A stretch of 64,000 nt of DNA from Mobula birostris (taxonomy: Eukaryota): assembly GCF_030028105.1 (NCBI RefSeq), contig NC_092396.1, positions 31,437,474-31,501,473 of the forward strand, read 5' to 3'. A program made the translations under genes and the position numbers. The notes under the pieces were generated by a model. The model was not told where the DNA came from. It saw only the letters and a list, made by a program, of their open reading frames with translations, and ran no database searches. Positions within the stretch are counted from its first letter, which is position 1, and each line of letters starts with the position of its first letter. Of this stretch, positions 28,206 to 29,856 are shown piece by piece.

Positions 28206-29047
28206 CTATAGATGGATCTAATGTAGATAGGTACACAGGAAGCGTGGACACGATAGGCCTGTTTCTGTGCTCAATAACTCCCTGATATTTCTATATTTAT
28301 TTTGTTGTAGAAAGAGGCCATTCAAGCCATTGAATCTATGCTGGGTCACAGTGCAATCCCATTTGCCAACTATGTTTCTATGTAACCTATTCCCCCTGCA
28401 TTCCTGTACCTCATTTACACCCACCCCCTCCACCCCGAGATCAGTGGTATGCCTTTAGGATGTGGGGTGAAATTGGAATACTGGTGGGAAACTCACATGA
28501 TTACAGGGATAATACGCAAACTCCACACAAACAAAACCAGAGGTCAGGATTTAACCCAGGTCACTGGAGTTGTGAGGCAGTTCTACGATCTATACCACCG
28601 TGCCACTCCTATCCTGATTCTATTCTGGTCATAGACAGCCTGAGAACCCAACCTATTCTTTGCCCTGAACCCAGTATTTGTGGAACTTGCGCTGAAATCA
28701 GGAAGGTTCCTAGTTCGAAATTCAAAGCCATATTTAATCGCAATGATCTAAATTCCACTCTGCAAGGTACGCAGGCTGAATTTTCTTCACAGGTGGACAA
28801 AGGAATTGTAAGTAAACAGGAACTTCCAAAGCAGAAGCAGCTACGTTAGCAGATCTCAGTGACATTCTCTCAATTTGGAGGTTTGCAAAGCTGGAAAGGA
28901 GCTTTGACAACCACAAACTGTCAACCAGATCAGCTATCTGTGTTTTTCAGAGCAAATCTGTGGCCATGGAAAACTAGGGTGAGTCCAAAACAATGAGGAA
29001 GCAGTGCAAAGGTATTGCATAACTTTAAGGCTGCTTGTACCTTTCGA

Positions 29048-29763
29048 CACACACAAACTGCTGGAGGAACTCAGCAGGCCAGGCAGCATCTATGGGAAAA
29101 AAGTACGGTCAACGTTTCAGGCTGAGACCCTTCAGCAGGACTGGAGAAAAAAAGACGAGGAGTAGATTTTAAAGGTGGGGAAGGGGAGAGAGAAACACAA
29201 GGTGATAGGTGAAATGAAACTGGGGGGGGGGGGGGAGGGTGAAGTAAATACCTGGGAAGTTGATTGGTGAAAGAGATACAGGACTGGAGAATGGGGAATC
29301 TAAGAGGAGAGGACAGAAGGCCATGGAAGAAAGAAAAGGGGGAGGAACACCAGAGGGAGTGATAGGCAGGCAAGGAGATAAGGTGAGAGAGGGAAAAGGG
29401 AATGGGAACTAGTGAAGGAGAGGGCAGGGGACCCATTACCGGAATTTCAAGAAATCGATATTCATGCTATCAGGTCGGAAGCTACCCAGACAGGATACAA
29501 GGTGTTGTTCCTCCAACCTGAGCATGGCGTCATCACGACAGTAGAGGAGGCCATGGATTGCATATTGGAATAGGAAGAGGAAGTGGAATTAAAATGGATG
29601 GCCTATCACCCAGAGTTTTACCCTCGCCTCCCCACCCCCACCTTTTTTAAATCTACTCCTTTTTTCCCTCCAGTCCTGCCGAAGGATCTCGGGCCAAAAT
29701 GTTGACTGTACTGTTTTCCATAGATGCTGCCCGGATTTCCAGCATCTGCAGATTATCTCTTGT
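29048..29763. mobile_element. Penelope-like element derivative with inverted pseudo-LTRs and 13-bp TSD
   Basis: TTGTACCTTTCGA at 29035-29047 and 29764-29776. Hammerhead-like motifs at 29106-29143 (-) and 29671-29708 (+). A GIY-YIG C-terminal remnant lies at about 29440-29600 (-). Confidence 0.85.
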
Positions 29764-29769
29764 TTGTAC

Positions 29770-29856
29770 CTTTCGAGCTTTGTCTTGGAGATATTGGATT
29801 TGCTCGGCTATCATGGTCAGTTTATTAGTAGCGTTGGCACGGACGAAATCATCTGC
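29770..29856 (-). CDS. C1orf50: C1orf50 homolog, coding exon 3 (87 bp)
   Basis: ttttattccag|GCA...AAG|gtacaa. Encodes [29 protein letters not shown], versus human [29 protein letters not shown]. Confidence 0.93.

Follow-up and report, generated by a model that had tools for sequence, protein, structure and literature searches.

Penelope-like elements are described as carrying an inverted truncated copy at their 5' end and a tail of 30-40 nt at one end (PMC8557442). Examples described from rotifers are flanked by duplications of 8-10 bp (PMC3846280), and for an anole element assayed in vitro both strands were cleaved and extended, and initiation took place at both tail ends (PMC11167929). Retroelement insertions at host splice sites are described from several other systems. 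The canine merle SINE at the PMEL intron 10/exon 11 boundary produced a 15-bp duplication that contains the host splice acceptor (PMC7349775). In introners and other transposon-derived introns the target duplication can supply a splice site (PMC11282704), and the target-primed Alu and L1 insertions of NF1 lie in or next to exons, with duplications of 11-17 bp among the rows of the published table (PMC3219598).

Here we describe an insertion in intron 3 of the C1orf50 gene of Mobula birostris, located in a window of 64,000 nt (64 kb), which is the whole stretch of DNA that was analysed. The reading that we favour, and consider probable, is that an old truncated Penelope-like element lies between two identical copies of the exon 3 donor, that the upstream donor is the one spliced, and that the insertion likely left a silent, neutral copy of it downstream.

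The inserted copy shares with described Penelope-like elements the inverted truncated 5' arm, the one-ended tail, a GIY-YIG C-terminus placed before the pLTR, a degenerate hammerhead-like motif, a short duplication and a microhomology deletion (PMC8557442, PMC3846280, PMC11167929). It differs in that the reverse transcriptase (RT) is gone and in that its duplication covers 13 bp over a host donor, compared with 8-10 bp in the rotifer examples (PMC3846280). Its target and tail end also agree over 4 nt, in contrast to the anole enzyme, whose initiation in vitro takes place without homology (PMC11167929). The likeness to the merle SINE is that a retroelement duplication took in a host splice site, and there exonisation competes with the original site (PMC7349775). 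That case differs in that the duplicated site is an acceptor, the SINE is young and a phenotype acting through a cryptic acceptor of the SINE has been measured (PMC7349775); in C1orf50 the site is a donor, the element is old, and an alternative form was not observed. Introners lie in exons and must be spliced out (PMC11282704), while the C1orf50 element leaves with the whole of intron 3, and its separate excision was not seen. The NF1 insertions disturb splicing, mostly through skipping or cryptic sites (PMC3219598), whereas the C1orf50 element is an old survivor with normal splicing. A search of the open-access literature, by titles and the beginnings of abstracts, returned no donor or recursive site copied by a target duplication, including donor-side Penelope cases, and nothing relevant on repeat annotation in rays.

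The C1orf50 gene and its neighbourhood

C1orf50 is encoded on the reverse strand of the window in five coding exons (Table 1). Exons 2-5 match the Pfam domain DUF2452 in order, and the five-exon translation agrees with the RefSeq C1orf50 protein of Mobula birostris at all 189 residues compared of 190, junction codon 16 having been left out of the comparison. The exon 3/4 junction reads ARK/VLEE, and C1orf50 is flanked by AP5B1 and a leprecan-family gene. Its gene model is firm. Hypanus C1orf50 has two isoforms that differ at the N-terminus, with exon 3/4 unaffected. Other features of the gene include an upstream ATG in exon 1 (45250-45285), which opens a short out-of-frame reading whose stop overlaps the main start codon, and a 32-bp minisatellite in intron 2 (35003-35300; 9.3 copies, 95% matches).

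The 3' part of the gene is repeated head to tail at 15544-27246, in two copies of 5,852 nt that differ by 7 mismatches and include exons 4-5, the 3' end and ~520 nt of intron 3. The junction at 21395 shows a 1-nt overlap and interrupts a short repeat. In two samples of organism A the contigs break exactly at the duplication edge (27246), and depth in run X1 was 95-116 inside and 56-63 outside; in organisms B and D contigs continue unbroken across this edge. The 5.85-kb tandem duplication looks real, and it offers exon 3 a second exon 4-5 pair coding for the same protein, with the second exon 4 at 20872-20741; the mRNA contig of run X5 matches the first copy. Depth in X5 was also raised over the last 850 nt of intron 3 (26696-27569), at 19-23.5 compared with 4-7 elsewhere in the intron, and this rise ends near an AG ending at 27574. 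Possible sources are a longer exon 4, an internal start, or read-through that continues into the duplicated copy.

Table 1. Window coordinates of the C1orf50 coding exons, the two donor copies and the parts of the inserted element (a slash within a motif or position marks the splice junction)
Feature	Positions	Strand	Basis
C1orf50 exon 1, coding part	45196..45241	-	RefSeq protein match
C1orf50 exon 2	39792..39907	-	DUF2452 and RefSeq protein match
C1orf50 exon 3, 87 nt, phase 0/0	29770..29856	-	DUF2452 positions 40-68, RefSeq protein, RNA splice to exon 4
Upstream 13-bp copy, used donor 29770/29769	29764..29776	-	Sequence and RNA contig joints
Inverted pLTR arm	29602..29763	+	Self-alignment, sibling alignment, opposite-strand contig joints
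First in-frame stop if exon 3 extends to second donor	29653..29655	-	Translation
Frameshifted C-terminal GIY-YIG endonuclease ORF remnant, gene sense	29436..29598	-	tblastn and sibling alignment
Sense 3' UTR/pLTR, ending where the tail would begin	29048..29435	-	Sibling alignment
Donor-like site CAG/GTATTT in element, top consensus match of 176 GT sites, no use seen	29246..29254	-	Consensus count
Degenerate minimal-hammerhead-like motif (core CTGCTGA, GTT at cleavage position, one stem I mismatch)	29106..29143	-	By eye from alignment
Two acceptor-like AGs (ending 29141, 29090) within predicted stem	29090..29160	-	Mean unpaired probability 0.20 and 0.16
Downstream 13-bp copy, second donor 29041/29040, no use seen	29035..29047	-	Sequence and RNA contig joints
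C1orf50 exon 4 (first copy)	26592..26723	-	DUF2452, RNA contigs, RefSeq protein
C1orf50 exon 5, coding part (first copy)	25607..25798	-	DUF2452, RNA contigs, RefSeq protein

An exact duplication of the exon 3 donor

The insert is flanked by an exact 13-bp duplication, TCGAAAG/GTACAA on the gene strand, which corresponds to positions -7 to +6 of the exon 3 donor. The identity does not extend beyond 13 nt on either side of the two copies, and the window contains the 13-mer at these two places and nowhere else. The two donors are 729 nt apart, equal to the 716-nt element plus one 13-nt copy. The perfect duplication of 7 exonic and 6 intronic nucleotides and the identical downstream donor, both described in an earlier sequence-only reading of this DNA, were recovered as stated.

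A chance match or an assembly artefact could in principle produce such a repeat. When all 62,900 intervals of 716 nt in the window were compared in exact register, a flanking repeat of at least 13 nt was found in one, the C1orf50 donor site itself. With ±5 nt of slack, 4 of 3,000 random intervals of the same length had a flanking repeat of at least 9 nt; one of these was again the donor site, and the remaining three fell on two further copies of the element's repeat family. Contigs from organism A DNA span both insertion junctions with 0 differences (28172-29074 and 29739-30100), which rules out an assembly artefact. On the other side, five of the 13 duplicated bases could derive from the element (four from the tail end, one from the sense end), and no duplication longer than 8 nt was found around six other copies of the family, whose boundaries are approximate. 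We regard chance or artefact as an extremely improbable origin of the repeat.

The exact start of the element is less sharply defined than the +7 position given in the sequence-only reading, which is one end of the admissible range. Paralogous contigs have loose ends at 29767 (161 in X1 and 203 in X13), and the sibling copy ending near 31873 has the same four terminal bases as the tail end of the element, so positions +3 to +6 match the target and the family terminus alike. Judged from these termini the start is ambiguous between +3 and +7, and the unambiguous duplication is 8-9 bp plus microhomology.

No empty site was found. Organism D has the 5' junction, and ~28580-29041 is thinly covered or uncovered there, which points neither way. 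Among the contig rows listed for organisms B and D, none spans the downstream copy (29035-29047). A search of metagenome contigs with a 24-nt pattern from the exon end returned 0 matches, and the full protein gave one irrelevant locus at 34% identity. The pre-insertion sequence was therefore reconstructed from the duplication alone.

Structure of the Penelope-like element

The 716-nt insert is a 5'-truncated Penelope-like fragment composed of an inverted arm, an endonuclease remnant and a sense 3' part (Table 1), without RT and without the linker. The two arms align at 29602-29734 and 29079-29209 with 107 matches and 19 mismatches. A remnant of the tail, which is ~39 nt long in the sibling, is present at the outer end of the inverted arm (~29734-29763, with the family match extending to 29767) and absent at the sense end, and a deletion of ~38 nt lies immediately inside it. 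Opposite-strand joints (29047>29733) were found in paralogous contigs of all four runs, with 11-29 contigs per run.

The endonuclease remnant was matched in tblastn by 5 of 6 query proteins, which had been retrieved with the reading frame of the sibling copy (29567/29561-29439, best E 2e-10). Among ten relatives chosen from 150 listed, six had a Pfam GIY-YIG match, one of them above the cut-off; this protein, P0098 (882 aa), matched only the sibling copy. In P0087 and P0127 an RVT_1 domain precedes GIY-YIG, mostly below the cut-off. A Penelope-like element and a true target-site duplication that copies the donor, both proposed in the sequence-only reading, are thereby supported.

The sense part finishes with a hammerhead-like motif followed by a TG-rich end. 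The hammerhead core is intact in three other pieces of the family and changed in the intron 3 copy. An Rfam search of 28800-34000 gave 0 matches to hammerhead or any other family, and the motif had no significant fold as a monomer; self-cleavage of the intron was set aside as a candidate on these two results. Minimal hammerheads of Penelope-like elements are described as having no detectable cleavage as monomers (PMC4209133), and given the changed core the motif is assigned no role here.

Further pieces of the same superfamily lie in the window at 31322-31873, 32979-33709, 40177-40310, 53924-54280, 63530-63648 and 7478-7573, the first two of which share the inverted-arm layout. The changed position of the hammerhead core is common to three aligned pieces and may be a subfamily trait.

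Donor usage in RNA contigs

Four of 24 listed sequencing runs were compared. No run was recorded as RNA; X5 (organism A) and X10 (organism B) were taken as RNA because GT-AG joints were present in them and absent from the other two runs. The joint 26723/29770, which uses the first donor, had a depth of 303.5 in X5 and 759.7 in X10, and 0 in both other runs. Exons 3, 4 and 5 are contained in a single unbroken contig of 783 nt in X10, and the X5 junction contig reaches at least 26 nt into exon 3, beyond the -7 point at which the second-donor form would branch off. A 29041-to-26723 joint was not present among the 15 of 860 joints listed, most of which are paralogue noise. Of the two joints whose comparison had been suggested as a check, the contigs thus show the first in two of two RNA runs, and the second is not among the joints listed.

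A 729-nt extension of exon 3 would raise the depth of the element over that of the intron beyond 29041. The locus-specific element contig of X5 (29379-29559, 0 differences) had a depth of 6.68, compared with 6.23 in the intron past the second donor, 6.8 in a later part of intron 3 and 6.62 in intron 4. This equality suggests that the extension is present at ~1% or less at steady state. Assembled contigs lose rare forms, and expression is poorly reflected in their depth; NMD would weaken the signal of any poison form, and a cassette exon near the 3' end of the element would be invisible, since that bin is swamped by paralogues. These contigs show the first donor to be dominant; absence of second-donor use does not follow from them.

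Extension of exon 3 as far as the second donor would give the translation VQTRDNLQ...GKKE before a stop, exactly as foreseen in the sequence-only reading. Its further claim of a working alternative 5' splice site giving a poison isoform found no support: the first donor is deep, the second is absent among the listed joints, and the element stays at intron level. No protein with element-derived residues was found, the 9 matches to the read-through frame covering 45% of the query and only its exon 3 part, and a search for read-through protein of shorter length gave no matches. A truncated C1orf50 protein with element residues was rejected, as no protein match reaches the element part. With respect to A-to-I editing of the stem, counts of changes were similar in the RNA and DNA runs of organism A and swamped by paralogues, and they indicate nothing about editing.

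Unregulated use of the copied donor at a low but real level, with the transcripts degraded by NMD, is unlikely in our assessment. A small cassette exon, spliced through an acceptor of the element, would be a likelier route to it than the 729-nt extension, and there are six acceptor-like AGs in the sense part. As a rule, a premature stop triggers NMD when it lies more than 50-55 nt before a junction. In all seven hypothetical forms (six cassettes of 49-368 nt and the extension) the stop precedes the exon 4/5 junction by at least 82 nt, so that any use of the second donor would give a poison form. The RNA contigs speak against such use, with no joint of this kind among those listed, the mRNA contig of X10 unbroken and the element depth of X5 at background.

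The same duplication holds AG/GT, and the downstream copy could also be read as a recursive splice point: if the 29770 donor were spliced to the AG at 29042-29041, 729 nt would be lost and the pre-mRNA would be exactly as before the insertion, in the manner of introners, whose splice sites are described as supplied by duplications (PMC11282704). The acceptor context is poor, however, with AAG after a GT-repeat and two CAGs ~20 nt upstream, and no such joint was among the 15 of 860 listed. Recursive sites in vertebrates typically belong to very long introns, whereas intron 3 is 3 kb. We give this reading a very slight chance.

Donor strength and predicted fold

The donor departs from the consensus at +4 to +6. 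Among the 176 GT sites of intron 3, ranked by a crude consensus count and not by a trained splice-site score, the used donor was 13th and the copy 28th, and the energy of the U1 duplex was identical for both (-5.6 each). The exon 3 donor is mediocre and likely works through exon definition, which the copy lacks. Given its weak U1 match, the donor would be recognised because it closes an exon of 87 nt; the copy would close an exon of 816 nt and would emerge from transcription 729 nt later, preceded by a better-matching GT within the element, and the two element acceptors nearest to it would be paired in the stem of the inverted arm. In NF1, insertions of 300-2000 bp mostly gave skipping or cryptic-site use, for which weakened exon definition was proposed (PMC3219598). 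Against this view of the copy, SRSF1 is described as favouring the downstream of two competing donors (PMC5585400).

The donor-like site of the element (GT at 29251) is missing from two sibling copies, and could bound a cryptic exon with the acceptors at 29409, 29300 or 29284.

The arms are predicted to fold at -266.5 kcal/mol (z -11.6, 20 shuffles) into a stem with 131 long-range pairs at a mean probability of 0.92. In this fold the donors are 54 steps apart, compared with 729 in the sequence, in line with the proposal that the inverted arms could bring them together. Closure of the stem would be possible only ~560-690 nt after the first donor is transcribed. For the low-level use of the copied donor considered above, the prediction points both ways: the shortened distance and the acceptors at 29409 and 29220, predicted unpaired (0.86 and 0.91), favour it, while the acceptors that would give the two smallest cassette exons with the copied donor (AGs at 29141 and 29090) sit in the stem.

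Insertion, age and abundance

Under the proposed route of insertion, the endonuclease would have made staggered nicks 13 nt apart, one in exon 3 (-8/-7) and the other at +6/+7, and from each nick cDNA would have been primed at one tail end or the other, probably with help from the 4-nt microhomology in the case of the upstream nick. The two cDNAs would then have joined near 29602, and fill-in would have created the duplication. It had been suggested that the gene survived because the duplication preserved its donor. This restates survivorship, as the insertion lies just inside the intron, and predicts nothing more; with any duplication the flank upstream of the second nick stays whole, so restoration of the exon end is not special to this site.

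The arms have diverged at 15% of aligned sites, and the element and its sibling at 12%. Organism D is 6.0% diverged (2,872 aligned positions in four pieces), and its contig from the flank runs 20 nt into the element and ends there. Organism D thus holds the 5' junction, and the insertion is older than that split.

The perfect retention of the copy, CpG included, together with the strong stem, could be taken as signs of a selected, structure-controlled poison switch or of a back-up donor for C1orf50. The probability that an unselected 13-mer remains unchanged at 6-7.5% divergence is 0.36-0.45. The CpG of the downstream copy was kept, and comparable CpG columns had decayed in one partner in 5 of 8 and 5 of 5 cases, which lowers the neutral probability to an estimated 0.2-0.3 or so, not a significant value. 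On these estimates perfect retention is compatible with neutrality and provides no evidence of selection. Stems are moreover the normal anatomy of such elements, the sibling at 32979-33709 has a stem as well, and use of the second donor was not seen in the RNA contigs. A selected switch or back-up donor is accordingly highly improbable.

The family is plainly very abundant: depth in X1 summed over the element was ~6,000 to 180,000 times the single-copy depth, a figure that is not a copy number. A genome of 3-4 Gb with ~200,000 donors would, at 10,000-100,000 copies, be expected to contain 3-33 whole-donor duplications by chance.

Discussion

The C1orf50 locus adds a clean new case to a known type of event, and there is no evidence of function. 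The stronger possibility, that the duplication made a truly used second donor or an AG/GT ratchet point, with the hairpin choosing between normal splicing, an NMD form and exact self-removal, appears to us quite improbable.

On the favoured reading, the duplicated donor constitutes a natural control, in which two identical 13-nt donors occur in one pre-mRNA, one being used and the other apparently ignored. The pair is an example of a weak donor being chosen by its context. Proven use of the copy, or conservation of such copies genome-wide, would add a donor-side, Penelope-driven route to new splice choices. Were its use controlled by the hairpin, Penelope-like insertions would supply structure-controlled splice switches in ray genomes, perhaps numbering from several to a few dozen in each genome.
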